Source: an uncultured Rhodoblastus sp.
Lineage (GTDB): Bacteria > Pseudomonadota > Alphaproteobacteria > Rhizobiales > Beijerinckiaceae
Assembly (NCBI GenBank): GCA_964634325.1
Contig: CAZWJF010000009.1
Span: 94,028-158,027, forward strand
Direction of reading: 5' to 3'
Length of the DNA: 64,000 bases
Under the pieces are notes generated by a model. The model was not told the DNA's origin, searched no databases, and worked only from the letters and a program-made list of their open reading frames with translations. The translations under genes and the position numbers were made by a program. Position 1 is the stretch's first letter. Each line of letters begins with the position of its first letter. Shown here piece by piece: positions 7,125 to 54,009 of the stretch.

Positions 7125-7125
7125 C

Positions 7126-11300: not shown

Positions 11301-11318
11301 GAGGAGGAAACGAACAAC

Positions 11319-11615: not shown

Positions 11616-11616
11616 G

Positions 11617-37987: not shown

Positions 37988-38020
37988 ATCCGAGACAGAC
38001 CTACTCGACTGGAGCCTGAG

Positions 38021-39808
38021 ATGACCTATCGCGCGCCTGTTTCCGACATGATCTTTGCGATGAACCACGCAGCCGGCCTGCAAAGCGGGATCGAGAGCGG
38101 CGTGTACGCCGATCTTGCGGACGGCATGGCCGAGACGATGCTCAACGAGGCCGCGAAATTTGCCGAGAACGTTCTCAATCCCCTGCATCGCGACGGAGAC
38201 CGCATCGGCGCGAAGTGGGCGGACGGAGTCGTCACGACGCCGCCCGGCTGGATCGACGCCTATCGCCAGTTCGTCGAGGGCGGCTGGCAGAGCATGACTG
38301 GCGGCGCCGGCCACGGCGGGATGGGTCTGCCGCAGGTGCTGCTGGCGGGCTGTCTCGACATGTGGAGCGCCGCCAACATGGCCTTCATGCTCGGTCCCGT
38401 GCTCACCTTCGGCGCGATCGACGCGCTGGAGGCTCATGCGTCGGACGAGATCAAGCACACCTATCTCGAGAAGATGATCTCCGGCGTCTGGCCGGCGACC
38501 ATGAACCTGACCGAGCCCGGCGCCGGCTCCGACCTGAACCCGCTGCGCACAAAGGCCGAGCGCCAGCCGGATGGAACCTACAGGATTTCCGGGCAGAAGA
38601 TTTTCATCACCTACGGCGAGCACGATATGGCGGAGAACATCGTCCACCTCGTGCTTGCGCGCCTGCCGGATGCGCCGGGGGGGACAAAGGGCATCTCGCT
38701 GTTCGTCGTGCCGAAGTTTCTGGTGAACGCCGACGGTTCGCTTGGCGCGCGCAACGACGTGCGCTGCGCCGGCATCGAACACAAGATGGGCATTCACGGA
38801 TCGCCGACCTGCATCATGGTCTATGGCGACGCCGGCGGCGCCACGGGCTATCTCGTCGGCGAGGAGAACAAGGGGCTGGCCTGCATGTTCACGATGATGA
38901 ACGACGCACGGCTCGCCACCGGCCTGCAGGGCGTCGCCATCGGCGAGGCCTCGTATCAGCATGCGCTGGCCTACGCGCAGGAGCGAAAGCAGGGCCGCGC
39001 CGAAGGCGCTCCCGGATTAGCGCCGATCATCGCCCATCCAGACGTCAAGCGTATGCTGATGACCATGAAGGCGCTGACCGAGAGCGCGCGGGCGATCTGC
39101 TATCTCACCGCCGGCGTGATCGACCGCTCGCGTCGCGAAGCCGACCCCGCCGCGCGCAAGGCGGCTGGCGATCGCGCCGGCCTGCTGACGCCCATCGCCA
39201 AGGCCTATTCCGGCGACATCGGCAACGAAGTGTCCTCGCTCGGCGTGCAGGTTCATGGCGGCATGGGCTTCATCGAGGAGACGGGCGCGGCGCAGTTCAT
39301 GCGCGATTCCCGCATCATCTCGATTTACGAAGGCACGAACGGCATCCAGGCGATCGACCTCGTCACGCGCAAGCTGCCGCTCTCCGGCGGCGCCGTGATT
39401 CGCGCCGAAATCGCCGACATGCGCGCCGTTGCGGAAGCCCTGCGCGCGACCAACGATCCGGCGTTCGGCGCGAGCGCGCAGCGTCTCGCGGAAGCGATCG
39501 ACGCGTTCGATCGCGCGACCGCTTTCATGCTCGACAAGGTCGCCAGCGCGCCGCAGGACGCGCTGGCTGGCGCGACGCCCTATCTGCGGCTGTTCGGCCT
39601 CGTTCGCGGCGGCGCCTCGCTCGGCGCCATTGCGCTAGCCGCCCATGCCGCGCGCGTCGCCGGCGAGAGCGCGCCGACCCATGCGAGCCGCATCGCTGTC
39701 GCGCGCTTCTTCGCCGAGAATATCGTGACGGGCGCGGGCGGACTCGAGACGGCGATCGTCGGCGCGGCGGAGTCGGTTCTGTCGGCGGACATCGCGCTCG
39801 CGATGTGA
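38021..39808 (+). CDS. Large acyl-CoA dehydrogenase with extra C-terminal domain (FadE/AidB-like)
   Basis: 595 aa. ...[11 protein letters not shown]..., ...QVHGGMGFIEETGAAQFMRDSRIISIYEGTNGIQ..., plus ~150 aa of additional helical C-terminus. Confidence 0.85.
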   Translation: MTYRAPVSDMIFAMNHAAGLQSGIESGVYADLADGMAETMLNEAAKFAENVLNPLHRDGDRIGAKWADGVVTTPPGWIDAYRQFVEGGWQSMTGGAGHGGMGLPQVLLAGCLDMWSAANMAFMLGPVLTFGAIDALEAHASDEIKHTYLEKMISGVWPATMNLTEPGAGSDLNPLRTKAERQPDGTYRISGQKIFITYGEHDMAENIVHLVLARLPDAPGGTKGISLFVVPKFLVNADGSLGARNDVRCAGIEHKMGIHGSPTCIMVYGDAGGATGYLVGEENKGLACMFTMMNDARLATGLQGVAIGEASYQHALAYAQERKQGRAEGAPGLAPIIAHPDVKRMLMTMKALTESARAICYLTAGVIDRSRREADPAARKAAGDRAGLLTPIAKAYSGDIGNEVSSLGVQVHGGMGFIEETGAAQFMRDSRIISIYEGTNGIQAIDLVTRKLPLSGGAVIRAEIADMRAVAEALRATNDPAFGASAQRLAEAIDAFDRATAFMLDKVASAPQDALAGATPYLRLFGLVRGGASLGAIALAAHAARVAGESAPTHASRIAVARFFAENIVTGAGGLETAIVGAAESVLSADIALAM

Positions 39809-39886
39809 CGAAAACGTAGTGAACGAAACCTTTTCGATACCAATCCTGCCTTAGACTGCCGCCTCGTTCCACCGAGGCGGGCTCTC

Positions 39887-40561
39887 TTGCAAGTCGATCT
39901 GTCGGGCAGGGTTGCGCTGGTGACAGGCGCGAGCAGGGGCATCGGCGCCGCCGTTGCGTTCGCTCTGGGCTCCGCCGGCGCGAGAGTGGTCGGTGTCTCT
40001 CGAGCGCAGGGCGTCGACCTGCTCGATCGCGACAGCCGCGCAAAGCTCGATGCGGATGTCGACATCCTCGTGAACTGCGCCGGCATGCAGGCGTCGTCTC
40101 CGGCGCTCGACTATCGGCTCGATATCTGGGACCGCGAAATCGAGATCAATCTGACGGCGATGTTCGATCTCGCGCGTCGCGCCGCGCCCTTCATGATCGC
40201 GCGCGGCTGGGGGCGCATCGTCAATTTCACGAGCATTGCGGGAATTCAGGGCACGCGCGGAATCGTCGGCTATTCGGTCGCCAAGGCCGGCGTGATCGAA
40301 CTGACCAAATGCCTCAGCAACGAATGGAGCCCTCACGGCGTCACGGTCAATTGCGTCGCGCCCGGTTACATCGAAACCGAGATGCTGAGGCCCCTGACCG
40401 GCAACCCCGCCGCGGCTGAGACGACCAAAGGACGAATCCCGATCGGACGGTTCGGCGCGCCTGAAGAAGTGGCGAGCGCGGTCCTGTATCTGTGCAGCAA
40501 TGAATCGAAATACATCACCGGCGTCACGCTGCCGGTCGATGGAGGATGGATGGCGAGATGA
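39887..40561 (+). CDS. Short-chain dehydrogenase/reductase (compact, 224 aa)
   Basis: TTG start. VALVTGASRGIG, NCAG, YSVAKAGV (YxxxK), PGYIETEM. Its stop overlaps the radical-SAM start as ATGA. Confidence 0.8.
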   Translation: MQVDLSGRVALVTGASRGIGAAVAFALGSAGARVVGVSRAQGVDLLDRDSRAKLDADVDILVNCAGMQASSPALDYRLDIWDREIEINLTAMFDLARRAAPFMIARGWGRIVNFTSIAGIQGTRGIVGYSVAKAGVIELTKCLSNEWSPHGVTVNCVAPGYIETEMLRPLTGNPAAAETTKGRIPIGRFGAPEEVASAVLYLCSNESKYITGVTLPVDGGWMAR

Positions 40562-41598
40562 AGATTCAAACGATCGACCTTCGGCATAACAAGCGGGTCA
40601 ATCTCGGCGAGGCGGCCCCGTTGCCCGCGCCGTTTTCGCTGTACCTCGAGCCAACCAGCCTGTGCAACATGCGCTGCGAATTCTGCCCGACCGGCGATGC
40701 GAACCTGCGCAAGCAGCGCCCTAACGGCATGATGGATCTGGCGCTGGTCGACAAGCTCGTCGCCGATATCAAGGATTGGGGGATCCAGCTTCGCCGCATC
40801 AATCTCTACAAGGACGGCGAGCCTACGCTGCACAAGCAATTCGTGGAGATCGTCGAGACCCTCAAACGGGGCGCCGTTGCCCGAGAATTGTGGACCAAGA
40901 CGAACGGCCTGCTGCTGAACCCCGATCTCAACCAGCGGCTGATCGGAAGCGGACTCGACATGATCGGCGTGTCGATCAACGCGGTCAGCGGCGACGGCTA
41001 CATGCGGGTGACGCGCACGAAACTCGATTACGACAGACTCGTCGCCGGCGTGACAGACCTGTGCGAGCGCGCAAAGTCGGCGAATGTCCGCGTCCTCGTG
41101 AAGATCGCGGATTCGGGCTTCACGCCGGAGGAAATCCAGAAATTCCATTCGGACTTCGCAGCGGCGCAATATCTGTCGGTCGAGCAATTGCACGGCTGGG
41201 CCGCGTCCGACGCCAAGGACTGGACGCTCGGCACGAACCCCACGACATTCGAGGGCGCTGCGCTGACCGACAAGATCGCGTGCCCGCTCCCCTTCTTCAT
41301 GCTCGCTGTCAACTGGAACGGAACGGTCGGCCTGTGCAACGACGACTGGCTGCACGCCACATTGTGCGGCGATCTGCGCAAGCAGTCTCTGAAGGACATC
41401 TGGCACGGCGAGGAGTTGCGCAAGCTGCGTCTCATGCATCTCGAGGACCGTCGCCGGGAGAACGGGGCCTGTGGCAATTGCAGCAACCTGCGCACGCTGC
41501 CGGACAACATCGACGCTCATCGCCTCGGCATCTGGAAGCGGATGCACGAGCGCAGCGAGGCAGAGGCGGGGAGCGACGCCGGCAGGATCGCGGTGTAG
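40558..41598 (+). CDS. Radical SAM enzyme with C-terminal SPASM/twitch-like Cys-rich domain
   Basis: 346 aa from ATG 40558. CNMRCEFC (CxxxCxxC). C-terminal cysteines CPLPFF...GLCNDDW...LCGDL...ACGNCSN. Confidence 0.8.
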   Translation: MKIQTIDLRHNKRVNLGEAAPLPAPFSLYLEPTSLCNMRCEFCPTGDANLRKQRPNGMMDLALVDKLVADIKDWGIQLRRINLYKDGEPTLHKQFVEIVETLKRGAVARELWTKTNGLLLNPDLNQRLIGSGLDMIGVSINAVSGDGYMRVTRTKLDYDRLVAGVTDLCERAKSANVRVLVKIADSGFTPEEIQKFHSDFAAAQYLSVEQLHGWAASDAKDWTLGTNPTTFEGAALTDKIACPLPFFMLAVNWNGTVGLCNDDWLHATLCGDLRKQSLKDIWHGEELRKLRLMHLEDRRRENGACGNCSNLRTLPDNIDAHRLGIWKRMHERSEAEAGSDAGRIAV

Positions 41599-41610
41599 GC
41601 CCGCAACGCG

Positions 41611-42576
41611 TCAGAAGTTGATGCGTTCCTTCTCGATCACGAGCGGAAAATTGCGCGCGTAGTTCAGCAAGAGGCCAATGTATTCTCCGACGACGCCGAG
41701 CGCGAAGAGCTGTATCGAACTCAGGAAGAACACCGCGATCAGAACCGGCGCGACCCCGATCGGAAAGCTGTTCCAGAAGAGCAGCTTGACGATGAGGTAG
41801 ACCAACCCGGCCGCGAAACTGAGCAACGACGCGAAAAAGCCGAGAAACGTCATCAGCCGCAGCGGCGCGCGCGAGGAAGTCGACAGGCCGACAAGCGCGT
41901 AGTCTGCGAGCGAATACAGCGTGTAGCTGGAGCGCCCGTGCCGGCGGGGCGGCTGTTCGTATTCGACGAATGCGCGCTCGAACCCGACTTCCATCACGAG
42001 GCCCCGGAAGTAGGGTTCCGGTTCGTTGAGGGCGCGCATGGCGTCGATCACGCAGCGATCGTAGAGCCCGTATCCCATGTAATGCGGGATTTGTTCGATC
42101 TTCGACAGCCGCCGGATGAGCCAGTAGAAGGCGCTGCGCGCGAGCCCCAGAAGCGGATTCTCGGGCATCGGCTTCTTGACCGCGATGACGGTCTTGGCGC
42201 CCTGTCGCCACAGGCGAACCATTTCGGGGATGAGCGACGGCGGGGTCTGCAGGTCGGCCAGGACGGGCACGACCGCGTCGCCGCTCGCCAGAAGCGTCGC
42301 GTGGAACGGCGACCGCTGCGGCCCGAAATTGCGGGAATTGACGATCACCTTGACGCGCTTGTCGCCGGCGGCGATCTCCCGCAGCAGATCGACCGTACGG
42401 TCGCGCGAGCAATTGTCGATGAAGATGTGCTCGTAGGAGACGTCCGCCAGGTCGCGCGCCATGACGTCGCGGACGCTCTCGTAGCAGGCGACGATGCCGC
42501 CTTCCTCATTGTAGCAGGGCGTGACGATGCTCAGGACGGGCATGGACGAAGGCTCGGTAGCGTAAGCGCGCACCAT
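41611..42576 (-). CDS. GT2 polyprenyl-phosphate glycosyltransferase (GtrB/ArnC/DPM1-like)
   Basis: 321 aa. LSIVTPCYNEE...FIDNCSRD (DxD-like)...SRNFG... and two C-terminal TM helices ending VVGEYIGLLLNYARNFPLVIEKE, the hallmark of lipid-phosphate sugar synthases. Confidence 0.85.
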   Translation of the reverse strand: MVRAYATEPSSMPVLSIVTPCYNEEGGIVACYESVRDVMARDLADVSYEHIFIDNCSRDRTVDLLREIAAGDKRVKVIVNSRNFGPQRSPFHATLLASGDAVVPVLADLQTPPSLIPEMVRLWRQGAKTVIAVKKPMPENPLLGLARSAFYWLIRRLSKIEQIPHYMGYGLYDRCVIDAMRALNEPEPYFRGLVMEVGFERAFVEYEQPPRRHGRSSYTLYSLADYALVGLSTSSRAPLRLMTFLGFFASLLSFAAGLVYLIVKLLFWNSFPIGVAPVLIAVFFLSSIQLFALGVVGEYIGLLLNYARNFPLVIEKERINF

Positions 42577-42588
42577 GCCGGATCATCA

Positions 42589-43736
42589 TTAATTTTCCGC
42601 CATCGCGCCGGCCGTCAGGTTCGGAGGCTCTGCGACGCGCATGCGTTTCAGCCAAGCGGTCAGGCGACGATTGGCTGGCGCTTCGAATTTCGTGTGAATG
42701 GCCGAGGCGAGCGCCATGGCGAGCGCGGCGAACAGCAGCGTGGCGATCTCGCCCGTCCACGCATTCGCAAGCAGGGCCGGAGCGAACAGCAGCAGCGCGA
42801 TCTTGTAGAGCGGCAGCGCGAGCGCGTGCGTCATGTAGAGCGCGAAGGAAGCCTCGCCCGCTGCGACGAGCGGCTTCCAATGCAGGAACGACGCCCTGCC
42901 GGCCATGTCGCGCGCACCCAGCGACGCGATGAGAACGAGCGCGCCCGGAACGAATAGATAGTTGAGCGTCGCTTCGCTCTGGACATTCTGCGCGCCGTCG
43001 CGATGCAGCGCAAACGCGACGACCATCAGGCCGAGGCCGAGAAGCGGATGACCGAAACGCCATCGCCGCGCACCAGGACGGCGGCGAGCCCGCCGAGCGC
43101 GAACTCCGCGAAATGCGGCAGGGGATGGTGCTTCAGAAAGTCTGACGCTCCCGCCGCGTCCGTCGCGGCGGCTGCGATCGCCGCGCCGAGGACGCCGACA
43201 TAGGCGCCGCATGCGATTGTCCCGACCGACACGCGATTGGCCAGCAAGGCGCGGAAGAACGAGGGCGCGACAAGGTAGAAGGCGAATTCGCAGGACAGCG
43301 ACCATGACACGCCGTTCCATGCCTGCCGGATTTCCGGAGCGCCGATCGTCAGGTCGTGCAGCAGCAGGAAGTTGAGAACGGTCCCGCCAGGCGTTCCCTC
43401 GTAGCCTCCGATCGGCGCGCCGAGCAGGGCGAACAGCCAGAGCGAGACGAGCAGCGTCGCGACATGCAGCGGATAGATGCGAAAGATGCGGCGGGCGATG
43501 AAATCGCCCCATGTCGCGCGCCGGTCGAAGCCGTACATCAGCACGAAGCCCGACAGGACGAAAAACAGCGGCACGCCGAGCCAGCCGACCTCGCCGAGCG
43601 CGCGGACGACAGGAAAATGCGGCCAGGCGTCGCGCGTGTGATGCACCACGACCGCCAGCGCCGCGAAGGCGCGCAGCGACGTGAGCGCCGGAAGGACGCG
43701 CGGAGGCGAAGGCGTAGGGGCGACGGCCTGGTGCAT
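42589..43736 (-). pseudogene. Acyltransferase-3 (OafA-type O-acyltransferase) gene interrupted by a frameshift
   Basis: The N-terminal 2/3 is in one frame (43736->43026: LTSLRAFAALAVVVHH...WSLSCEFAFY...). The C-terminal 1/3 is in another frame (about 43075->42589: GHPLLGLGLMVV...LVAAGEASFALYMTHALAL...). The span is 1148 nt, not divisible by 3. Confidence 0.7.
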
Positions 43737-43813
43737 GGCCGCAATTTAGACGACGCGCATTGAACGCCTGTTCCAGGCTTGTCTCAAAGCCGATGCGCTT
43801 TGTTAAGCCGGTG

Positions 43814-45223
43814 TTAACCGGCGCGACGAGCCAGCGACGCCAGCGCCGAGACCGGCAGCAGGCGGTCGTCGATATAGAAGTCCGCGGCCGGTTTGCCGAA
43901 GTGCAATTCGTGATAACGCAGGCCCCAGCGCGCAAATTGATCCTCGGTCACCTTCCGCCAGTCCATGCCTGTGGCCGATCCGCGTGCGGTGAACATCACG
44001 ATGCGATGGCCCTGGTCGAAGAGCTCGTTGACCGCCGCAATCGCCTGCTCCAACGGTTCGGCGAGCGTGTAGTCATTGCCGGGCGTGAGGCTTGCGACGA
44101 CGCCGTCCACATCGACGACGAAGGTCAGCCGCGCATCGCTTGCATGTTCGTTCCGGTGGAGCGCCGGGCTCGGCGCGGGCGAGTGGCTTCGCGCGCGGGC
44201 ATGGTCGACCGTCTTGAGGATCGCCGAATCGAGCGACGTCCAGACGTCGAGGCCGAGCGCACGCGCCCGCGCGATCGAGGGAATGTAACGCGACCGCGCT
44301 GCATTCGCGTTCGCTTCGCCCTTGATGATTGCGCGTCGCCCGTCGGCCGCATGATGCGCGGCCTTGCGCGCGAGATCGCCAATCGCAATCGGCTCGTCGG
44401 AGCCGACGTTATAGGCGGCCCCCGCGCGGCCTTTCGCCAGCAGCGTCAGAAGCCATACTGCAAGATCGCCGGCGTAAAGATAGCTGCGCAAGGGCGAGCC
44501 GTCGCCCGCGACGACAACGTCGCGCCCGGCGACCGCGTCGCCAATGAAATTGCCGATCGCGAAATGCGCATCGAGCGGCAGGCCGGGTCCAACGAAGGCG
44601 AAGGCGCGCGCGATCACCGGCTGCAATGCGCCCTTCGCCATGGCGCATACGCACATCTGTTCGGCGACCCGCTTCGCCTGTCCGTAGGCCGAGCGTGGAT
44701 CGCATGGATCTGGCGCGCCACGATAATCCTCGTCGATGGCGTCGATGTCGGTTGGTTGGGGGCCGTAGACCGCGCCTGAACTGACGTAGAGCAGGCGCTC
44801 GGCGCGGGCCGCCGCGGCGAACTCGAGCACGCGCGCCGTTCCCGAGACAATCGTGTCGATCAGCGTCGCGGAATCGGAATCGGCCGCGACGCTTGTGTCC
44901 GTCGCCGCGTGAATGACATGACTGAAGCGGCCTTTCGGAAATTCGAAATAGCGCACGTCGCCATGCGCGAGGCTGATCGCCGCATGGTCTGCGAGCGCAG
45001 GATATGCAGCCCGGAACGCTTGCGGATTGCGCGTGAGCGCTGTGGCGCGAATGCCGAATTGGCGGTGCGCGCGCGCGATCGTCGCAAGCAGCCAGCGCCC
45101 GAAGAATCCCGTGCCGCCGGTGATGAACAGATTTGCGCCGCGCAGGCTCTCGAGCGCCGGGCCGCAATGCGCGATCGCCTCGTCGAGATCGCGCGGATCG
45201 AGCCCGTCGTAATCCTCGGTCAT
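43814..45223 (-). CDS. NAD-dependent sugar epimerase/reductase (extended SDR) fused to a HAD-like phosphatase domain
   Basis: 469 aa. N-terminal ~330 aa has ITGGTGFFG and SAYGQAK (YxxxK). The C-terminal ~120 aa has FVVDVDGVV (DxDG nucleophile motif)...MFTARG...GKPAADFYIDDR. ATGA overlap with the upstream ThDP enzyme. Confidence 0.8.
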   Translation of the reverse strand: MTEDYDGLDPRDLDEAIAHCGPALESLRGANLFITGGTGFFGRWLLATIARAHRQFGIRATALTRNPQAFRAAYPALADHAAISLAHGDVRYFEFPKGRFSHVIHAATDTSVAADSDSATLIDTIVSGTARVLEFAAAARAERLLYVSSGAVYGPQPTDIDAIDEDYRGAPDPCDPRSAYGQAKRVAEQMCVCAMAKGALQPVIARAFAFVGPGLPLDAHFAIGNFIGDAVAGRDVVVAGDGSPLRSYLYAGDLAVWLLTLLAKGRAGAAYNVGSDEPIAIGDLARKAAHHAADGRRAIIKGEANANAARSRYIPSIARARALGLDVWTSLDSAILKTVDHARARSHSPAPSPALHRNEHASDARLTFVVDVDGVVASLTPGNDYTLAEPLEQAIAAVNELFDQGHRIVMFTARGSATGMDWRKVTEDQFARWGLRYHELHFGKPAADFYIDDRLLPVSALASLARRAG

Positions 45224-47106
45224 GCCGGTTCGCGCGCCGCGGCTTTCGGCAGGAGATGCGCTGGCGCGGAGTCAGACGCGGGGTCGAGCGGTACGATCAT
45301 GTTGGCCCGCAGTTCGTCGCGCGGCAGAAGCGGCGACATGTCTTCGAGCGGCATGGAGCGCATCGATCCGTCGGCCTGCGGCAGCGCGGCCGATTTCGGG
45401 AAGAGCGCTTCGTCGGCGACGACTTTCACGTCGACCAGCAGCGGCCCGCAATGCGACAGCGCGCGTTGCAGACCCTCGTGCAGATCGGCCGCGTCTTCGA
45501 TCCGGAAGGCTTCCCATCCGAATGTCTTCGCCAGCGCCACGAAATCCGGAATGTCGAGCTTTCCGGCAGATCCGCTGCCGACATATCGGCCATCGAAGTA
45601 GTTGCGCTGCGTATTGCGGATCGAGGCGTAGCCGTTGTTGTTGAATACGATCAGCCGTAGCGGAATCTTCTGGCTGGCGATGGTCTGCATCTCCTGCAGA
45701 TTCATCATCAGCGAACCGTCGCTTTCGATTCCCACGAACGGCCGGCGATCCGACGCCATATAGGCGCCGATCATAGCGGGCAGCCCATAGCCCATCGCAC
45801 CGAGGCCCGAAGTCAGGAAGACGCGCTGGCCTTCCTTGTTCTGAAAGCCCGTGTAGAAAAATTCGATTGCGAGGCCCGAGCTTCCGGTGACGATCAGCGA
45901 ATGCGCCGGCAATTCATCGGACAGCGCTTGCGTCAAATGGAAGTGGCTGATGGGGCCGCGCGTCGGAAACGGGGCGCCGTCGTTGATCGGATAACGCCGC
46001 TTCCAGTCCGCGCAGCGCGCGAGCCACGCGCTGCGGTCGCGCGGGTTCGACTGGCGCGCAATCGGGATCATCGTCTCGATGAAATCGCGCGCGTCAGCCT
46101 GCACGCGCAGGACGAAGCTTTCGACGCCATCGAACTTGGCGAGCTCAGCCGGGTCGACGTCGACCATCACTTTCTTCGCATGTCGTCCGAATTTTTCCGG
46201 ATTGTGCGCGGTCACCACATTGTCCAGCCGGGCGCCGACAGCGATCACGAGATCGGAATTCTGGATCGCGAAATTCGGAGCGCGCAATGCGACGACGCCC
46301 GGCTTGCCGACGCTGAGCGGATGATCGGCGGGCGCCAGGTCGGTCGCGTTCCAGGTCGTCACGACCGGAATGCGCAAGGTCTCGTAGAGCGTGCGAAACT
46401 GCTCGGCGGCTTCCGCCAGACGAACGCCGTGGCCAGCAAGGATGATCGGCCGCTCGGCCTCCTCGATCAGGTCCATGATTTGCGCGCAAGCGTCGCTAAG
46501 CGCGGCGCTCGAATCTGAAGAAACCGGGGCGTCGAAAGGACGAAGCGAGGCGGGATCGATGGAAGCCGCCTGCACGTCGAGCGGTATGTCGATCCAGACG
46601 GGGCCGCGCCGGCCTGTCGTCGCCAGATGGACAGCTTGTTCGAGATGAACACGTATGTCCTGCGGATCGAGCACGGTCGCCGCATACTTGGTGATCGGCC
46701 GGACGATGGAGACGATGTCGACTTCTTGCGGCCCCATCTGGCGCACACCGCTGTCGCCCATCATGTCGGACCGTTTCACCTGACCCGAAATGATAAGAAG
46801 CGGCACGGATTCGATCCACGCGCCGGCGCAGGCCGTCACGGCGTTCGTGCCGCCGGGCCCCGTCGTCACGAGCGCGCAGCCGAGATGGCCGTTGACGCGC
46901 GAATAGGCTTCCGCAGCGATCGAGGACGCCTGTTCGTGATGGTTGGGCACATAGTCGAGCCCCGGCGTATTGCCGAAGGCGTCGCAGAGATACATCGCTC
47001 CGCCGCCGGGGACGAGAAACACAGAGCCGACGCCCTGGTCGCGAACGAAGGCGGCGACATAGTCCGCGAGACGAATCGTATTCGGGCCGGTCATGCGCGC
47101 GTCCAT
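45220..47106 (-). CDS. Thiamine-diphosphate enzyme of the acetolactate-synthase superfamily (YerE-like candidate)
   Basis: 628 aa. N-terminal Pyr domain (VFLVPGGGAMY...HHEQASSIAAEAYSR...TTGPGGTNA). ThDP motif IESDGSLMMNLQE-X-LIVFNNNGY (DG-X24-NN). Confidence 0.85.
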   Translation of the reverse strand: MDARMTGPNTIRLADYVAAFVRDQGVGSVFLVPGGGAMYLCDAFGNTPGLDYVPNHHEQASSIAAEAYSRVNGHLGCALVTTGPGGTNAVTACAGAWIESVPLLIISGQVKRSDMMGDSGVRQMGPQEVDIVSIVRPITKYAATVLDPQDIRVHLEQAVHLATTGRRGPVWIDIPLDVQAASIDPASLRPFDAPVSSDSSAALSDACAQIMDLIEEAERPIILAGHGVRLAEAAEQFRTLYETLRIPVVTTWNATDLAPADHPLSVGKPGVVALRAPNFAIQNSDLVIAVGARLDNVVTAHNPEKFGRHAKKVMVDVDPAELAKFDGVESFVLRVQADARDFIETMIPIARQSNPRDRSAWLARCADWKRRYPINDGAPFPTRGPISHFHLTQALSDELPAHSLIVTGSSGLAIEFFYTGFQNKEGQRVFLTSGLGAMGYGLPAMIGAYMASDRRPFVGIESDGSLMMNLQEMQTIASQKIPLRLIVFNNNGYASIRNTQRNYFDGRYVGSGSAGKLDIPDFVALAKTFGWEAFRIEDAADLHEGLQRALSHCGPLLVDVKVVADEALFPKSAALPQADGSMRSMPLEDMSPLLPRDELRANMIVPLDPASDSAPAHLLPKAAAREPA

Positions 47107-47111
47107 GCCTC

Positions 47112-48638
47112 TCAGATCCAGTAGCGCAGGATCGTCTTGCGGTTCGGATTCTCGTTGATCGCTTCATCGGTGTAGAAGGAGTCGTTGACGAAATGCGTCG
47201 ACGAAATCTCCTCGAACACCGCGCCGGTGTCGCTCTCGAAAGCGTGCCGGACGCCCGGCGCGATGGTCACGACCGCGCCCGGTCCGCAGATGCGCTCTTC
47301 GCCGTCGAGCTGCAATTTCAATTCGCCATGCAGGACGTGGAAGGTCTCTTCCTTCAGCTTGTGGAATTGCTCGGGATGTCGCTGACCGGGCAGGACGACG
47401 ATGAGCTTCTTGCAGTAGCCGCGGTTCACGACGGTCACCATGGTCAGGCCATAGGCGTCGAACCGCTCGATCCCGAAGTGATGCGAAATCTCCAGTTCCG
47501 CCTCGCCTGGCACGACGCCCTTGCTCTCCTTGAGCAATTGCTTCACCCGTCCGACGATGGACAGCACCTTGGCGCGAACTTCCTTGCGCTCGGTCGCTTC
47601 CGCCATGACGGGCGCGTCGGCCGGCAGGTCGCGCGTCGCCGTGAATTGCGAATACTTCGACCAGTCGTTGGCGGTTATCTGTCCGGACTGCGTCGGAATC
47701 GCGAAGAACACGTCGTCCGATTTGATCCTTTGTCCCTTGGCGACCGGGCGTTTGAGGAACGCGCCGCGACGCAAATCGCGCAAGGCGGCGAGTTCGTCCG
47801 GGGTGGGATCGATGCGCTCGCCGACGACGCCGGCGATTTGATAGGCCTTGCGCGCCGCTTCGAGCCAGGCGCGGGCCTGCTGCGGATTGGCGGAATAGTT
47901 GTTCAACGGATAGGCGTCGGTCGGCACGCCGATATGCTTCTCGAACAACGCCGCGCCTTTGGCGATCGCCATGGCCACAGGCATGGTCTCGTTCGGATCC
48001 TCGTGCGTCGAATAGCCGATGCGCAGCTGCGGATAGCGATGCTTCAATATGTCGATCTGGTTGAGCTGCAACGCCGCGTTCTGCGTCGGATATTGCGCGA
48101 CGCAGGCCATCAGCGCGAAATCCTTGTCGCGGTGCGTCAGGAACGCCACGACATTGTCCATGTCGGAATATTCGACGCCCGCAGTCGAGCCGACGATCGG
48201 CAGATTGACGGTCGCGATCTTTTCGAGCAGCGGCCAGTCCGTGAACGAGCAACTGGCGATTTTCAGTATGTCGAACCCGTCTTCGACGATGCGGTCCACG
48301 GACGGTTCGTCAAACGGCGTGCACATCGCCAGAAAGTCGTTGGACTTGATCTCGTCCACCAGACGTCTCGTCTCGTCACGGCTCAACCGCGTTTCCGAAA
48401 AGCGCTTGATGTACTTGATGTCCATACGGCCCTTGAAGGCCGGATGGATGAAGGTGTCGAGCTCGCGAAACTGCAGCTTGAAGGCGAAAGTGAAATCGAA
48501 ATCCTTCGCGAGAGCGCCGAACTCCCGGATGACGCGCAGTCCGTGTTCGACGTCGCCCATGTGATTGTTGGCGAGTTCGAAGATGAACAGCGGATTGGGC
48601 AGGCTGTTGCGCGGCATGGCGACCGTCTTGTCCAGCAT
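47112..48638 (-). CDS. NeuB-type sialic-acid-synthase-like domain + SAF domain + C-terminal cupin (D-lyxose/mannose-isomerase-like)
   Basis: 508 aa from ATG 48638 (GAGGGA upstream). LFIFELANNHMGD...FKLQ...KIASCSFTDWPLLEKIA...PIVGSTAG...YSTHE...FEKHIG (NeuB TIM barrel). LRRGAFLKRPVAKGQRIKSDDV (SAF). QRHPEQFHKLKEETFHVLHGELKL...GVRHAF (cupin). Confidence 0.8.
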   Translation of the reverse strand: MLDKTVAMPRNSLPNPLFIFELANNHMGDVEHGLRVIREFGALAKDFDFTFAFKLQFRELDTFIHPAFKGRMDIKYIKRFSETRLSRDETRRLVDEIKSNDFLAMCTPFDEPSVDRIVEDGFDILKIASCSFTDWPLLEKIATVNLPIVGSTAGVEYSDMDNVVAFLTHRDKDFALMACVAQYPTQNAALQLNQIDILKHRYPQLRIGYSTHEDPNETMPVAMAIAKGAALFEKHIGVPTDAYPLNNYSANPQQARAWLEAARKAYQIAGVVGERIDPTPDELAALRDLRRGAFLKRPVAKGQRIKSDDVFFAIPTQSGQITANDWSKYSQFTATRDLPADAPVMAEATERKEVRAKVLSIVGRVKQLLKESKGVVPGEAELEISHHFGIERFDAYGLTMVTVVNRGYCKKLIVVLPGQRHPEQFHKLKEETFHVLHGELKLQLDGEERICGPGAVVTIAPGVRHAFESDTGAVFEEISSTHFVNDSFYTDEAINENPNRKTILRYWI

Positions 48639-48749
48639 CGACTGCTCCCTCGGATCGCCGGCTGCGTCGGCGCAAATCAATTGATGTCGGCGCTCGCGGG
48701 CGCCTGATGAGACTCACGACCAGTCTCGCGGCGGAGGGTAAATTTTTCC

Positions 48750-50339
48750 TTAGCGGCTGTCCGCCTTTGGAACAGTTTTCCCGCTCACTCCAGGGGAGAA
48801 GGTCGGATCGACGCCATAGCCGAAATCCGGCCAGCACTGGCGCACGTCGACGGGGCGATGCGTCGCGCCGTCGGAGTTCATCAACCAGGCCGGCATCGTC
48901 CGGCGGTCGACCGCGTAATTGCTCGGCGCGTCCTCGCCGGCCAACGCCGCATTGGCTTCAAACAGCGAGCAATCGCTGATCGGATACCGCTGGAAGACGG
49001 CGGCGCGCGTGAGTTCGACGGCGGCCGAGGGCGCGCAGAGCCCGAGGACCAGAGCGCCGAGATAGCGTGCGAACGTGCCGCGGCGCGCCGGATCGAGCAG
49101 GACAGAGCCGAAGCAGAAGGCCACAATCGTAAGCGCCGAAATCGAGCCGCGCATCACCAGATCGTTGGCAGGTCCAAACCGCCCGAGCGGCAGGGCGACG
49201 AGCAGGATCAGGCTGAAGATCAGCAGACCGCGGTCCGCGGAGGGCACGTAGCGTCGGTACAGCGCGATATAGCCGACAGGAACGAAAGCGGCGAGGATGA
49301 AGACGATATAAAGCAGCCAGAATTCTTCGCGGTCGCTGCTCAATCCGTGATCGATCGTCTCCGCGCCGATGACCATATAGGCCGCGACCGGGATGAAGCC
49401 CACGGCGACCGCGGCCACCGACCACAGTCGCGCGGAGGTCAGGCTGACCCGAAAATTCGCGGCGATCCGAAGCACGATCCACAAGGCTGCGGGCAGGATG
49501 GCTAGCGGCGACCAGAACAGGGCGCCGCCGATGGAAACGGCCACGGTCGCCTCGTCGAGCTGACGTCGCGCGAGCAGCAACAGCAGCATGGCCAGCCACC
49601 AGCCTGGCAGCGCATGGTTCGGAACCCAGAAGAACTGGACGAGAGACGCGGAATACTGGAAATGCGGGTTCCAGGAATCAAAGCCGATATAAAGCAACCG
49701 GCCGAGCGTGAGCGGCATTTCGCCGACCATCACCAGCACGATGCCCAGCGCCGAACAGCCAGCGAGCAGAACCATGACGACGACATGCCGGAACCCGTGT
49801 CCGATCGTGGCGATCAGATAGAAGACGGCGCCGAGAAACAGGCTGTTCTGCGCGAACAACGCGACATGAGCGGCGTACAGGCCAAACGCGCGGCCGACGA
49901 GGGCCGGCAGCATATACATGCCGAGCGGCGCGCGCGTGACGTAGTCGACGCCTTTGTAGTCGTAGGCAGACGGAAAACCCGTCGTGACGAGATCGCCGAG
50001 CACCGCGTCGCGGATGCGCCAGTCGAGCGGCGTGTGAAGCAGATGCAACTGTCCGCCCAGAAGGAAGATCGCTGCGGCGAACGCGACCGCGACCGCAAGA
50101 CGGTTGCGCTGGATCGGTTCGTCGAGAAGGCCGTCGCAGGACGGCGCGCGCGCGATGAGGACCATCGCGCCGACGCACGCTCCAAGAAGAAGGGCTGCAG
50201 GCGCAGGGCGCAAATGCAACGCAAGCAACGCCGACGACGCGAACATCAGGAACGAGGTGAAAGCGACGAGCGCGCGGTTGGTCAGCGTCGCGCTGCGGAC
50301 CGATGCGCTGACGTCCGAACCAACCGCGAAATCGCTCAT
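48750..50339 (-). CDS. Large polytopic membrane protein, candidate GT-C-type lipid-carrier-dependent glycosyltransferase (GtrC analogue)
   Basis: 529 aa from ATG 50339 (ATGA overlap with the gtrA stop). More than 12 predicted TM helices and a ~100-aa non-hydrophobic C-terminus. The function is positional inference only. Confidence 0.5.
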   Translation of the reverse strand: MSDFAVGSDVSASVRSATLTNRALVAFTSFLMFASSALLALHLRPAPAALLLGACVGAMVLIARAPSCDGLLDEPIQRNRLAVAVAFAAAIFLLGGQLHLLHTPLDWRIRDAVLGDLVTTGFPSAYDYKGVDYVTRAPLGMYMLPALVGRAFGLYAAHVALFAQNSLFLGAVFYLIATIGHGFRHVVVMVLLAGCSALGIVLVMVGEMPLTLGRLLYIGFDSWNPHFQYSASLVQFFWVPNHALPGWWLAMLLLLLARRQLDEATVAVSIGGALFWSPLAILPAALWIVLRIAANFRVSLTSARLWSVAAVAVGFIPVAAYMVIGAETIDHGLSSDREEFWLLYIVFILAAFVPVGYIALYRRYVPSADRGLLIFSLILLVALPLGRFGPANDLVMRGSISALTIVAFCFGSVLLDPARRGTFARYLGALVLGLCAPSAAVELTRAAVFQRYPISDCSLFEANAALAGEDAPSNYAVDRRTMPAWLMNSDGATHRPVDVRQCWPDFGYGVDPTFSPGVSGKTVPKADSR

Positions 50340-50791
50340 GTCGCGCTCCGGAAGACAAAGTCGCGGCTCAGGACGTAGGAAATCGTCACGGCGCCGGGCA
50401 GAAGCAGCAGGCCGGCGAGCCATGGTGCGACATGAGCTTGCTCCAGAGCCGCGAGACCAGCCGCGTTGTAGACGAACACCACGCCATAGACGCCGAAGAA
50501 CCGGACGAGATTGCCGGCGCCGTGGGCGCGGAACACGAAGCGTCCGGTCGTGCGGAAGTTGAACAGAATGCCGAGGATCGTCGAGATGACGAGCGCAGAA
50601 AACGTCGTCGGCATGATCGCCAGCGCGACAAGGAATAATCCGTATCCGAAAGCCGTATTCACGCCGCCGACGATCAGAAACCGCAAGACTCGGTGGCGTT
50701 CCAGCAGGCCGCGCGTCGAGGCGACGATGTTGTGAAGCCCAGCGCGGCGTGGCGCGGGTCGCTCCTCGCGATCGTCGACGGACGGAATCAC
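50336..50791 (-). CDS. gtrA: GtrA-family small membrane protein (lipid-linked sugar translocation)
   Basis: 151 aa. ...[18 protein letters not shown]... and four TM helices ending [14 protein letters not shown] overlap with the upstream ddhC stop. Confidence 0.8.
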
Positions 50792-52131
50792 GCGACCTCG
50801 CGCGGCAGATTGCGGGCGAGGCCGCGCAGCGTCTCGATGACGAAATCGATTTCAGCCTCGCCGAGGCCCGGATAGACGCCGATCCAGAATGTACGGTCGA
50901 CCACGATATCGGCGTTCGTCAGCGGGCCGGCGATGCGATAGTCGCGGCCCTTCATGTACGGCTGGCGCACGAGATTTCCGCCGAACAGCAGACGTGTGCC
51001 GATGTTGCGCGCCTGCAGTTCGAGCAGCAGAGCATGGCGCGACAGCGGCGCGTCCTTGCGCAGGGTGATCGGAAATCCGAACCACGAGGGTTCCGTTCCC
51101 GGCGTCGCCTCCGGCAGGATGAACACGTCCTCAAGCGACGCGAGGCCATCGCGCAACCGTGCGAAATTGCGACGGCGCGCGGCGATGAATTCGTCGAGGC
51201 GTTCGAGCTGCGCGACGCCCACCGCCGCCTGCATGTCGGTGATCTTCAGATTGTAGCCGAGATGCGAATAGACGTACTTGTGATCGTAGCCCTTGGGCAG
51301 GTCGCCGAGCCGCCAGCCGTAGCGCTTGTTGCAGCTGTTGTCCTTGCCTGGATCGCAATAGCAGTCGCGGCCCCAGTCGCGAAACGATTCCATGATCTTG
51401 TCGAGATTGGCGTCGTTCGTGAACACAGCGCCGCCCTCGCCCATCGTGATGTGATGGGCGGGATAGAAGCTCAGCGTGCCGATGTCGCCGAACGTGCCGA
51501 CATGCTTTCCGCCCACGGTCGCGCCGAGCGCGTCGCAGCAATCTTCGATCAGAAACAGGCCATGCCGATCGCACAACTTGCGGAGCGCCAGCACGTCGAA
51601 CGGATTGCCGAGCGTGTGGGCGACCATGATCGCGCGCGTGCGCGGTCCGATCGCCGCTTCCAGGGCCGCGACGTCGATGTTGTAGGTCGGTATGTCCACA
51701 TCGACAAAGACGGGGACCATATTGTGTTGCAGGATCGGATTGACGGTGGTCGGAAACCCGGTCGCACAGGTTACGACCTCGTCGCCGGGCTTGAGTTGAC
51801 GCTGCTTGAGGCGCGGCGAGGTGAGCGCCGAAAACGCGACCAGATTGGCCGACGAGCCGGAATTGACGGTCAACGCGTATTTTGCGCCGATGCGGCGGGC
51901 GAGTCTGTCCTCGAATTCGTCGTTGAACCGGCCCGTCGTCAGCCAGAAGTCGAGTGCGGAATCGACCAGCATCTGCATGTCGCGCGCGCCGTAGACGCGG
52001 CCCGACACCGGGACGTTGGGGCGTGAAGGATCGAAGGGCGCACGCTGATGCGCGGCCGCGTGATAGCGCGCGGTCAATTCGAGAATCTGGGCGCGCAGCG
52101 CCTGCGGATCGTCAGGCGCGCTTGCGCTCAT
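50788..52131 (-). CDS. ddhC: CDP-6-deoxy-L-threo-D-glycero-4-hexulose-3-dehydrase (E1; RfbH/DdhC)
   Basis: 447 aa DegT/DnrJ-fold. [14 protein letters not shown] (His in place of the Schiff-base Lys). Cys pattern DC-C...(57 residues)...[11 protein letters not shown] equals C-X57-C-X1-C-X7-C. Confidence 0.9.
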
Positions 52132-53242
52132 GGCGGGGCTCTTGTGTCGGGCGGTCGACGACGCCGGCGTGGGGAGCGTCGAGACGCACGCGTTGACCGA
52201 GATAGGAATCGACCTGTTCGAATGTCGCGCGCCGCACGTCGTCGCCGCGTGCGTAGGCGCCGTACCAGGCGGCCGTCCACGCGAGCGCTTCGTCGAAATC
52301 GAGCAGCGGGCGCCAGCCGAGCGTCGCGTTCGCGCGCGACGTGTCGAGCCGCAGGAGATTGGCTTCGTGCGGATGATGCGCCCGATCGTGCGTCCATCCG
52401 CCGTCGACGCCCATCGCGCGATAGAAGGCGTCGAGCAATTGCGCGACGTTGCGCTCGCCTTCGACGCCCGGACCGAAATTGAATCCGCCTGATACTCCCT
52501 CCTGCGTCAGCGTTCGTTCCGCGAGCAGAAGGTAGCCGTAGAGCGGCTCCAGCACGTGCTGCCAGGGCCGCACGGCGCCGGGGCTGCGAACCATCAGCTT
52601 TTCGCCGGCGATCCGAGCGCGCACGGCGTCGGGCAGGATCCGGTTTTCCGCGAAGTCGCCGCCGCCGATGACATTGCCGGCGCGCGCCGATACGACGCGT
52701 ACGCCGGTCGCGGCGAGAAAGCTCTCGGAATAGGCGGAGGTCACGAGTTCAGCGCAGGCCTTGCTGCTGGCGTAAGGATCGCGGCCGCCGAGACGGTCGG
52801 TCTCGCGATAGCCCCAAACCCATTCCCGGTTGTCGTAGCACTTGTCGGTGGTGACCACGACGACGGCGCGCACGCTCGGCGTTCTGCGAACGGCCTCCAG
52901 CAGCGCGACTGCGCCCATCACGTTCACGCGGTAGGTCTCGACCGGATCGCGATAGCCCCAGCTGACCAGAGGCTGCGCGGCCATGTGGAACACGATGTCC
53001 GGTTCGCTCGCAGCCAGCGCCGCCTCGAGCGGGGCGAGGTCGGCGATGTCCCCGCGCCGGTCGTCGATCAGCGCCCCGGCGCCGATCATGTCGAACAAGC
53101 TCGGATTGGTCGGCGGCGCCAGTGCGTAGCCGGTCGCGCGCGCATTCAGCCGCTCCAGCATCGCCGACAGCCATGCGCCCTTGAAGCCCGTGTGGCCGGT
53201 GACGAAGACGCGTTTGCCGCTCCAGAAGGAGGAGGAGATCAC
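52112..53242 (-). CDS. rfbG: CDP-glucose 4,6-dehydratase
   Basis: 376 aa from GTG 53242 (GTGA overlap with the rfbF stop). [20 protein letters not shown]..., YASSKACAE (YxxxK). The 73-codon upstream extension of the track ORF overlaps rfbF and was rejected. Confidence 0.88.
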
Positions 53243-54009
53243 CAGCGCCTCCACTTCGCCTGGTCCGACGCCCATTCCTCTTCCAGGAACATCTTGTCGC
53301 GCAGCGTATCCATGGGATGCCAGAAGCCGTCGTGCAGATAGGCGCGCATCTGGTCCTCGTCGACCAGACTCGACATGGGGCCGCGCTCCCAGATCGTTTC
53401 GTCGCCCTCGATGCGGTCGATCACGCGCGGCGACAGCAGGAAGAAGCCGGCGCTGACCCAATCTTCGCGGTTTTCAGGCTTTTCGCGGAACGAGAGAATT
53501 CGGTCGCCGGTCAGGTTGATCTCGCCGAACTGGCGCTTCGGCCGGACGGCGGCCACCGTAGCAAGCCTGCCGTGCGCGCGATGAAACGCAAGCTCCGCCC
53601 TGAGGTCGATGTCGGAGACGCCGTCGCCATAGGTCAGCGCGAAAACGTCGTCGTCTTGCAGATGGTCGCGGACGCGCTTGATTCGCCCGCCGGTCATCGT
53701 CCTTTCGCCCGTATCCACCAGCGTGACGCGCCAGGGTTCGGCGGTCTGGCGATGCACTTCCATGCGATTGTTGGCCAGGTCGAACGTGACGTCCGACATG
53801 TGCAGGAAGTAGTTCGCGAAAAATTCCTTGATGTAATAGCCCTTGTATCCCAGGCAGATCACGAACTCGTTGAACCCCTGCGACGAGTATATTTTCATGA
53901 TGTGCCAGAGGATCGGCCGGCCGCCGATTTCGACCATGGGCTTGGGCCGGATCGTCGTTTCCTCGACGAGCCGCGTGCCTAGCCCGCCGGCGAGGATGAC
54001 GACCTTCAT
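53239..54009 (-). CDS. rfbF: Glucose-1-phosphate cytidylyltransferase
   Basis: 256 aa. MKVVILAGGLGTRL.EET..RPKPMVEIGGRPILWHIMKIYS..GF.EFVICLGYKGY.IKEFF.NY is the RfbF signature. Confidence 0.92.
   Translation of the reverse strand: MKVVILAGGLGTRLVEETTIRPKPMVEIGGRPILWHIMKIYSSQGFNEFVICLGYKGYYIKEFFANYFLHMSDVTFDLANNRMEVHRQTAEPWRVTLVDTGERTMTGGRIKRVRDHLQDDDVFALTYGDGVSDIDLRAELAFHRAHGRLATVAAVRPKRQFGEINLTGDRILSFREKPENREDWVSAGFFLLSPRVIDRIEGDETIWERGPMSSLVDEDQMRAYLHDGFWHPMDTLRDKMFLEEEWASDQAKWRRW

Follow-up and report, generated by a model that had tools for sequence, protein, structure and literature searches.

A predicted branched-sugar operon with a NeuB::cupin–ThDP enzyme pair and a Gtr-like transfer module in an uncultured Rhodoblastus

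YerE, the thiamine diphosphate (ThDP)-dependent enzyme of yersiniose A synthesis in Yersinia pseudotuberculosis, transfers a C2 unit from pyruvate onto cytidine diphosphate (CDP)-4-keto-3,6-dideoxyglucose, and the product is reduced by YerF (PMC9306805). YerE-like enzymes also use functionalised alpha-keto acids made by aldolases, and for ErwE (erwiniose), MMAR_2332 (caryophyllose) and MyGE (the C7-branched sugar of Mycobacterium gastri) these longer donors come from an aldolase that is encoded nearby (PMC9306805; reviewed in PMC12247030). A different set of described systems, the Gtr modules of Shigella and Salmonella phages, combines GtrA, GtrB and a type-specific transferase, and may be compared with ArnC/ArnT, with RgtE/RgtA-D of Rhizobium and with mycobacterial Rv3631/Rv3632/Rv3779. 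Within this group, GtrB and ArnC both load sugars onto polyprenyl phosphate. Here we describe a ten-gene operon from an uncultured Rhodoblastus sp. (contig CAZWJF010000009.1), found in a stretch of 64,000 nt that was analysed as a whole and is called the window below. Judged by homology and gene linkage, the locus adds an alphaproteobacterial member to the clusters of YerE/MyGE type and combines it with a transfer module resembling Gtr, which M. gastri has as well. Its distinguishing gene encodes a NeuB-type synthase fused to a cupin (NeuB::cupin), whose more plausible role is to provide the donor for the adjacent YerE-like enzyme. An earlier note, made from the letters of this DNA, had stated that no characterised system shows this combination of genes; this does not hold, since the YerE/YerF logic is published (PMC9306805) and the whole architecture recurs in M. 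gastri, where a locus tied to a solved glycan comes close to having the same gene set.

The ten genes are close-packed on the minus strand, running from 54009 to 41611, and a plus-strand pair converges on them, an arrangement already described in the earlier note and in agreement with the open reading frame (ORF) positions. The features are listed below in the direction of the operon, followed by the convergent pair.

53239–54009, minus strand: rfbF, glucose-1-phosphate cytidylyltransferase, making CDP-glucose (TIGR02623 equivalog, 413 bits, cut-off 300)
52112–53242, minus strand: rfbG, CDP-glucose 4,6-dehydratase (TIGR02622 equivalog, 450 bits, cut-off 278)
50788–52131, minus strand: rfbH/ddhC (E1), CDP-4-keto-6-deoxyglucose 3-dehydrase dependent on pyridoxamine phosphate and [2Fe-2S] (NF011936 RfbH equivalog, 724 bits, cut-off 423)
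50336–50791, minus strand: small membrane protein of the GtrA family, putative flippase partner for a lipid-linked sugar (PF04138, 53.7 bits, cut-off 26.1)
48750–50339, minus strand: polytopic membrane protein of 529 amino acids (aa), putative GT-C-like periplasmic transferase (fold matches only)
47112–48638, minus strand: NeuB (TIM barrel plus SAF)::cupin, putative phosphoenolpyruvate (PEP)-dependent 3-deoxy-2-ulosonic acid synthase (PF03102, 120 bits; PF07883, Cupin_2)
45220–47106, minus strand: YerE-like ThDP-dependent carboligase, putatively attaching an acyl branch at C-4 of the keto sugar (three TPP domains)
43814–45223, minus strand: extended short-chain dehydrogenase/reductase (SDR), YerF-like side-chain ketoreductase, fused to a small cap-less HAD phosphatase (PF01370, 127 bits)
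42589–43736, minus strand: acyltransferase-3 of the O-acetyltransferase type, frameshifted (PF01757, N-terminal part only)
41611–42576, minus strand: GtrB-type family 2 glycosyltransferase (GT2), putative polyprenyl-phosphate glycosyltransferase (match to GtrB 5ekp)
40558–41598 (alternative start 40546), plus strand: radical SAM/SPASM enzyme, possible tailoring enzyme (PF04055, PF13186)
39887–40561, plus strand: classical short-chain SDR (PF13561, PF00106)

Profile searches with Pfam and NCBIfam agreed gene by gene with the domains that the earlier note had assigned, and the four 4-nt start/stop overlaps that it reported can all be read in the sequence. They are GTGA at 53239–53242, where the rfbF stop overlaps the GTG start of rfbG, GTGA at 50788–50791 and ATGA at 50336–50339, by which the gtrA gene overlaps both of its neighbours (E1 and the 529-aa gene, respectively), and ATGA at 45220–45223. 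A fifth (ATGA, 40558–40561) joins the stop of the plus-strand SDR to the start of the radical SAM gene. The locus is a genuine ten-gene operon. A scan for promoters and terminators between 39.5 and 57.5 kb returned no promoter-like sites, and terminator-like sites occurred at chance level.

The first three enzymes all exceed their curated NCBIfam equivalog cut-offs. E1 has the cysteine spacing C199-x57-C257-x-C259-x7-C267, and its FYPAHH motif puts a histidine at the position of the pyridoxal phosphate-binding lysine of aminotransferases; iron-sulfur cysteines so spaced, together with His for Lys, we take to be the signature of E1. The ThDP protein scores below every acetolactate synthase equivalog cut-off, and its top match in the PDB is JanthE (8rph, 2e-114, 34% identity), with PpYerE (5ahk) also matching. 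JanthE of Janthinobacterium sp. HH01 (PDB 8rph/8rpi/8rpj) is the best solved relative and, like the window protein, has a non-canonical ThDP-binding motif: SDG...NN in the window protein (SDG at residues 462–464) and CDG in JanthE, where the canonical form is GDG, and the JanthE variant was reported as unusual (PMC12247030). JanthE accepts ketones, and its physiological substrates have not been established in the literature; an orthologous relationship with the window enzyme was ruled out, the identity being only 34%. A much higher value (69%) is seen with the M. gastri ThDP protein whose gene adjoins NeuB::cupin. Directly downstream of the ThDP gene, and sharing the ATGA overlap with it, is the extended SDR, so that the position of a YerF-like reductase is filled. 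By homology and gene order, RfbF, RfbG, E1, the ThDP enzyme and the SDR would constitute the published YerE-type route to 4-C-acyl-branched 3,6-dideoxyhexoses. In the systems of yersiniose A (YerE/YerF), ErwE, MMAR_2332 and Rhodopseudomonas palustris CGA009, as in the pathway predicted for the window, RfbF, RfbG and E1 make the acceptor CDP-4-keto-3,6-dideoxyglucose, a ThDP enzyme introduces the branch at C-4, and reduction with NAD(P)H follows. The earlier note had likewise proposed an unusual CDP-activated branched sugar, and homology and conserved synteny bear this out, but it had considered the lack of a terminal 3,6-dideoxyhexose reductase odd; none is expected, since branching consumes the 4-keto group.

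One difference from these described clusters lies in the donor. Their donors are pyruvate itself or the product of a pyruvate aldolase of the BphI/HpcH type, whereas the window cluster has no pyruvate aldolase and a putatively PEP-dependent NeuB-type synthase::cupin occupies the position of the donor enzyme. Another difference is that the classical YerE-type clusters are O-antigen or lipooligosaccharide (LOS) loci with ordinary transferases. The NeuB part of the fusion matches PDB 3g8r at 2e-125, by which measure a structure of a very close relative of the synthase domain already exists; 3g8r is a 350-aa 'probable spore coat polysaccharide biosynthesis protein E' that lacks a cupin and is apparently without functional assignment. 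The domain falls well below the NCBIfam cut-offs for NeuB_NnaB (120 vs 400 bits) and PseI (95 vs 340 bits). The cupin profile aligns over nearly the full domain length with D-lyxose isomerases (2y0o, 5e-14; 7nzo), which suggests that the fused domain may deliver an aldose from a ketose. In NeuB-type enzymes, PEP and an aldose are condensed, and the resulting 3-deoxy-2-ulosonic acid is an alpha-keto acid, which is the class of substrates decarboxylated by YerE-like enzymes.

When representative genomes, one for each species, were scanned for NeuB::cupin, at least 364 matches were confirmed, and 80 loci were taken for comparison. The homologues are 56–85% identical and come from Alpha-, Beta- and Gammaproteobacteria, Mycobacterium, Acidobacteria, Elusimicrobia and others. 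Linkage was counted in the 74 loci of other species with enough downstream sequence and, separately, in the 55 'full-flank' loci with at least 8 kb on each side. A YerE-like ThDP gene abuts the 3' end of NeuB::cupin in 71 of the 74; in one of the exceptions it lies 1.7 kb away, and on two Magnetococcales contigs there is none. The co-occurrence search for E1, ThDP and NeuB-cupin genes that the earlier note had suggested found ThDP in every full-flank locus (55/55) and E1 within 10 kb in most (47/55), the commonest gene order being rfbF-rfbG-rfbH-NeuB::cupin-ThDP. A full-text literature search for cytidylyltransferase, acetolactate synthase and neuraminate synthase together found no paper.

The NeuB::cupin gene was taken in the earlier note for an independent second C-C bond-forming activity, but the adjacency to ThDP in 71/74 loci and the substrate class favor donor supply. 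Pathways built on NeuB and KDN-9-phosphate synthase have in common with the window a NeuB TIM barrel with SAF domain and a HAD phosphatase in the operon. They differ in that the window has no cytidine monophosphate (CMP)-synthetase and no 2-epimerase, has a lyxose-isomerase-like cupin fused to the synthase, and shows an obligate linkage to the ThDP gene. A CMP-ulosonic acid synthetase was found neither in the window nor in five annotated related loci (L003, L004, L005, L087 and L028), and Pfam and NCBIfam profile searches of the locus proteins detected no homologue of NeuA or NeuC. Gene linkage therefore places NeuB::cupin, in all probability, within the ThDP branched-sugar pathway rather than as a separate sialic-acid gene.

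The HAD phosphatase is a tail of about 110 aa at the C-terminus of the SDR. It has a weak match to TIGR01689, matches the 'capsule biosynthesis protein' PDB 9iqw at 5e-10, and the motifs DxDxV, T and K..DD can be read in its sequence. Among the full-flank loci an SDR is present in 44 of 55. The phosphatase occurs in two unrelated forms, fused and cap-less in the window and some Alpha- and Betaproteobacteria, and as a separate HAD_2 gene right after the ThDP gene in M. gastri and Pseudomonas WCS358; this recurrence indicates a phosphorylated intermediate, for which the KDN-9-phosphate route is a precedent.

The closest counterpart of the whole locus is found in M. gastri DSM 43505 (L028). One block beside a polyketide synthase (PKS) gene contains GtrA, RfbG, E1, RfbF, a GtrB-type GT2 (3e-67 to 5ekp), NeuB::cupin and ThDP, as well as a HAD, two methyltransferases, an SDR and a weakly GT87-like membrane protein. 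NeuB::cupin and ThDP are 62% and 69% identical to the window proteins. Both loci thus have rfbF, rfbG, E1, NeuB::cupin followed by ThDP, a HAD phosphatase, an extended SDR, a GtrB-type GT2, GtrA and a polytopic membrane protein. The two methyltransferases, the PKS/LOS cluster setting and the HAD as a separate HAD_2 protein are peculiar to M. gastri, while the broken acyltransferase-3 and the radical SAM/SDR pair are peculiar to the window. The 529-aa protein showed no similarity in BLASTP to either of the two membrane proteins of the M. gastri locus. The M. gastri branch is presumably a 1,3-di-O-methyl-4,5,6,7-tetrahydroxyheptyl group. By analogy, this would be the 2'-deoxy pattern expected of a 3-deoxy-octulosonic acid donor made from PEP and a pentose, and its two methyl groups would fit the two methyltransferases of the locus. 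In the published work, the lipooligosaccharide of M. gastri carries a C4-branched 3,6-dideoxyhexose ('gastriose') with a highly hydroxylated C7 side chain, and the ThDP enzyme MyGE is encoded near the 'aldolase MygI' and a reductase, MygF (PMC9306805). A paper on the M. kansasii LOS does not mention NeuB or ThDP genes.

Further genes of the operon would supply the transfer module. The GT2 matches GtrB of Synechocystis (5ekp, 4e-49) over its full length, including the membrane part, and ArnC at 1e-21. Its matches to the NCBIfam models for PgfS and ArnC are under their cut-offs, and two hydrophobic helices are readable near its C-terminus. The 529-aa protein has no match in Pfam or NCBIfam, and 36 of its relatives searched against Pfam at E ≤ 1 likewise gave none. 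The family is small, with 223 matches, mostly in Beijerinckiaceae, Methylocystis and Rhodoblastus, and in another genome the same sugar cassette contains a relative that is 37% identical. Its AlphaFold2 model is confident (pLDDT 90.3), and the Foldseek matches of high probability (0.85–0.96) are all to GT-C enzymes, namely AglB, PglB, AftD, AftB, EmbA, ArnT and ALG9, with weak scores (E 0.02–0.2, TM 0.3–0.42). An acidic cluster at residues 106–116 contains the invariant residues D106, W107, R110, D111 and D116. From the predicted fold, it is likely but unproven that the protein is a GT-C-like periplasmic transferase. Foldseek against viral structures, for the phage Gtr transferases, gave nothing. 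A 679-aa protein (P0194) on a metagenome contig of 3.96 Mb fuses a homologue of the 529-aa protein to a GtrA domain (PF04138), a hint that the two may work together.

The window and the Gtr systems have in common a GT2, a GtrA and a polytopic protein in one operon. They differ in three respects: the window locus is not in a prophage setting and has no integrase or adjacent tRNA, its predicted donor is a CDP-sugar rather than uridine diphosphate (UDP)-glucose, and its third component lies outside the described families, where that of Gtr is a type-specific transferase. A Gtr-like module with a polyprenyl-phosphate carrier, as put forward in the earlier note, is supported by homology and conserved synteny. 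Polyprenol-linked donors made by GT2s resembling dolichol phosphate mannose synthase (DPM-like), for extracytoplasmic addition, have been proposed for mycobacterial LOS clusters (PMC4403928). In Methylocystis heyeri (CP046052.1; L003, L086) the cassette lies beside nif genes (nifB-like, nifZ, nifT), and a second paralogue of the 529-aa protein is found elsewhere in the genome, next to an insertion sequence (IS) and a polysaccharide locus with Wzx-like, GT1 and WecG genes. The pair of paralogues is consistent with two acceptor-specific transferases that would draw on one common lipid-linked donor.

Taking the gene identities, their linkage and their homology as given, the following substrates, order of steps and acceptor can be proposed. 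RfbF, RfbG and E1 would convert glucose-1-phosphate to CDP-4-keto-3,6-dideoxyglucose, with a reductase encoded elsewhere replacing E3. The cupin, of the lyxose/mannose isomerase type, would supply an aldose or aldose phosphate from a ketose, and the NeuB domain would condense it with PEP to a 3-deoxy-2-ulosonic acid, probably C8 from a pentose by analogy with M. gastri; should the aldose be phosphorylated, the HAD domain would remove the phosphate. The YerE-like enzyme would then decarboxylate this alpha-keto acid and add the acyl anion to the C-4 ketone, and the SDR domain would reduce the new ketone of the side chain. The GtrB-type GT2 would move the sugar from CDP to undecaprenyl phosphate, with GtrA aiding its passage across the membrane, and the 529-aa GT-C-like protein would attach it to an existing envelope molecule, for which lipopolysaccharide (LPS) is the most probable candidate. 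The acyltransferase-3 would be a decayed accessory, and the radical SAM/SDR pair may tailor the sugar. We judge the full scheme, that is, a CDP-3,6-dideoxyhexose with a long polyhydroxyalkyl branch at C-4, delivered by a lipid carrier to a periplasmic acceptor, to be probable, with considerable room for error; the branched-sugar core is more certain than the scheme as a whole, and the acceptor less so. The most specific version, in which a PEP-dependent NeuB::isomerase fusion instead of a pyruvate aldolase feeds a 3-deoxy-octulosonic-type acid to the ThDP enzyme, giving a 13-carbon branched CDP-sugar, the first GtrB to use a CDP-sugar and an uncatalogued GT-C-like transfer family, is put forward tentatively, as something short of an even chance. 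The decoration system seen in the earlier note is the model best supported by homology and synteny, and its claimed lack of a characterised counterpart has to be given up.

Several points weigh against this scheme. We know of no GtrB-type enzyme that uses a CDP-sugar, and the GT-C assignment combines weak Foldseek scores with zero sequence-family support. In motif 1 of the cupin, G-x5-Q-x-H-x4-E-x6-G, an invariant Gln replaces the first His of HxH (domain at 47112–47585), which makes isomerase activity uncertain, so that the cupin is perhaps no standard lyxose/mannose isomerase; an invariant His is found three residues upstream of the substituted position. No methyltransferases are encoded in the window, and its product is therefore not identical to the M. 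gastri sugar, which we take to be di-O-methylated. E3 (AscD/DdhD, of the ferredoxin-NADP-reductase type) is absent among the assignable ORFs of the 64-kb window, a lack that the earlier note had found odd. E3 is likewise missing from the M. gastri locus and four more annotated loci, and hence is not defining for this subgroup. The ThDP protein shares no more than the 34% identity mentioned above with JanthE. That MygI is the NeuB::cupin protein and MyGE the ThDP protein of the M. gastri block is our own inference, and a short branch would also be possible, as MyGE takes pyruvate in vitro (PMC9306805).

This last observation, together with the use of pyruvate by YerE, also favors two independent pathways, in which ThDP and pyruvate would give yersiniose A with its C2 branch, and NeuB::cupin and HAD a separate KDN- or Kdo-like ulosonic acid for another glycan. 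NeuB usually feeds CMP-sugar pathways, and NeuB with a HAD phosphatase is a known KDN pair. We consider such a division distinctly unlikely, given that a CMP-ulosonic acid synthetase is lacking in the window and the five annotated loci, that the M. gastri sugar has a C7 and not a C2 branch, and that independent pathways would not keep NeuB::cupin and ThDP side by side in 71/74 loci from several phyla. A further alternative accepts the branched sugar but has the operon supply only the nucleotide sugar, for cytoplasmic assembly of an O-antigen or capsule encoded elsewhere, with the GT2 acting on a lipid-linked oligosaccharide and the 529-aa protein serving as polymerase, ligase or transporter. 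It draws on the weakness of the GT-C fold match and on the makeup of most proteobacterial loci, which have the sugar core without GtrA or the 529-aa family (tblastn found a window-like GT2 in 21 and GtrA in 6 of the 55 full-flank loci), and direct action of DPM-like GT2s on LOS intermediates was kept open in the mycobacterial work (PMC4403928). It appears quite unlikely in view of the full-length alignment of the GT2 with GtrB and ArnC, membrane part included, the translational coupling of gtrA between E1 and the 529-aa gene, the known fusion of GtrA to the membrane protein, and the absence of Wzx, Wzy and ABC genes from the 64 kb.

The acceptor might also be a protein (flagellin, pilin or S-layer protein) and not LPS, with the chemistry and the carrier unchanged. 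Two oligosaccharyltransferases that act on proteins, AglB and PglB, are among the best fold matches of the 529-aa protein, and in Pseudomonas capeferrum WCS358 (L053, 611–20945) the order rfbF-rfbG-rfbH-NeuB::cupin-ThDP-HAD-methyltransferase-SDR-pyruvyl transferase-two methyltransferases-GT2 follows directly after fliC, fliD and fleQ, which is the usual site of flagellin glycosylation islands. For the O-antigen of WCS358 the literature names only glucose and quinovosamine and reports no branched sugar, and the flagellar setting implies that one sugar module serves different glycoconjugates across lineages. For the window we regard a protein acceptor as unlikely: it has no flagellar, pilin or S-layer genes, the Pseudomonas locus is without GtrA and the 529-aa family, and the second Methylocystis heyeri paralogue sits next to the Wzx-like, GT1 and WecG genes of a polysaccharide locus. 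The frameshifted acyltransferase-3, the missing E3 and an island in another Beijerinckiaceae genome (L006) that lacks rfbF, rfbG and gtrA could be taken as signs of a decaying, non-functional remnant, but all of the ten genes except one are intact and reach the full length of their families, the start/stop overlaps are preserved, the GC content at third codon positions (GC3) is like that of the expressed genes of this genome, and on two independent metagenome contigs NeuB::cupin recurs unchanged and the 529-aa protein recurs either unchanged or at 99% identity. Decay of the locus is accordingly very improbable, and delivery of a branched sugar by a lipid carrier to an envelope molecule is retained as the preferred reading.

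Statements of absence refer to the assignable ORFs of the window, whose sizeable ORFs were scanned against Pfam. Among these, no Wzx, Wzy, Wzz, ABC exporter, initiating phosphoglycosyltransferase or CMP-sugar synthetase was found, and the whole-window scan agrees with the earlier note on all the functions, E3 included, that it had listed as missing. With the genes for assembly and export absent, its view that this is not a classical O-antigen cluster also stands. The same cannot be said of the A/T-ending codons it perceived: GC3 is 0.816 in the island and 0.830 in the 31 other genes of the window (Mann-Whitney p = 0.24), and the two regions singled out as A/T-rich at codon ends, 40.5–41.6 kb and 47.1–48.7 kb, have values of 0.85 (radical SAM) and 0.83 (NeuB::cupin). 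The lower overall GC of these stretches resides in codon positions 1 and 2; the window as a whole is 65.6% GC. Neither a tRNA nor an integrase flanks the island, and there are no phage genes in the window; its only tRNA, tRNA-Arg(CCT) at 14836–14912, is 25 kb away. In L006, a Beijerinckiaceae metagenome-assembled genome, the island occupies the same site, bordered at one end by CtpA, a polysaccharide deacetylase and an MmyB-type regulator and at the other by radical SAM, acyl-CoA dehydrogenase and acyl-CoA synthetase, and lacks cysD-cysNC, rfbF, rfbG and gtrA. The recent horizontal acquisition suggested in the earlier note finds no support in this shared chromosomal site, the flank-like composition and the lack of an adjacent tRNA or integrase. 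Because of these features, and the genes missing from the otherwise syntenic L006, the locus appears to be a mosaic and not a recent insertion. On a longer time scale, movement of the core cassette between phyla is shown by the mycobacterial proteins, which are 60–70% identical to the alphaproteobacterial ones, and by IS elements around the M. marinum copy. In that genome (L004, GCA_964110705.1, 1000–17500) transposase genes of the IS21 and rve types and a sulfotransferase gene lie on the flanks of the cassette, suggesting that it has been mobile among mycobacteria recently; the cassette is not the same as the caryophyllose genes MMAR_2331-2333.

As the earlier note had seen, the acyltransferase-3 gene is frameshifted: it spans 1148 nt, not a multiple of 3, in two frames with a switch near 43030–43090. 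No homologue occurs in the 85 comparison loci, and the break reflects either loss of function as a pseudogene or an error in the sequencing. The SPASM region of the radical SAM protein matches BtrN at 1e-11. In one comparison locus (L015) a radical SAM copy with 76% identity adjoins the GT2, and an SDR with 78% identity adjoins the radical SAM gene; more distant radical SAM genes (26–33% identity) are present in 13 of the 55 full-flank loci. The short SDR continues a plus-strand run at 36275–41598 (acyl-CoA synthetase, acyl-CoA dehydrogenase, SDR, radical SAM) that converges on the island. At the L006 island the flanks comprise acyl-CoA synthetase, acyl-CoA dehydrogenase and radical SAM (32% identity), while L015 has only the SDR/radical SAM pair; whether the short SDR belongs to the pathway is uncertain. 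Directly upstream of rfbF, across a gap of 125 nt, are cysD and a cysN::cysC fusion (54135–56893, minus strand; NodPQ-like synthesis of 3'-phosphoadenosine 5'-phosphosulfate). No sulfotransferase was seen among the window genes, so that a role of the two genes in sulfating a glycan is no more than possible. A urea ABC transporter and urease genes (ureD, a ureAB fusion, ureC, ureG) are found at 2111–13535, and the remaining sizeable ORFs of the window have Pfam assignments to urea transport, urease, elongation factor P, a mechanosensitive channel, UDP-glucose dehydrogenase and further housekeeping functions (fatty-acid-type enzymes, CysD, CysNC, CtpA, RlmH and RsfS).

Only a handful of solved glycans contain branched 3,6-dideoxyhexoses whose side chains are long (yersiniose, erwiniose, caryophyllose and the sugars of M. 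gastri and R. palustris), and such sugars are chemically hard to detect. Hundreds of species, ranging from Proteobacteria to Actinobacteria, carry the NeuB::cupin–ThDP pair as a tightly linked and portable unit, in settings that are LPS-type, lipooligosaccharide or flagellar, and it offers a sequence signature by which such sugars can be predicted. It provides a testable role for an abundant protein annotated as 'sialic acid synthase family/cupin' and points to a possible class of physiological donors for YerE-like biocatalysts such as JanthE. The locus also adds an uncatalogued GT-C-like family. In the Rhodoblastus itself, the predicted envelope decoration could affect recognition by phages, hosts or antibodies. 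If the proposed role of the fusion is true, the number of matches among species-representative genomes (at least 364) would mean that giant branched sugars are widespread, and largely unseen, in bacterial envelopes and flagella.

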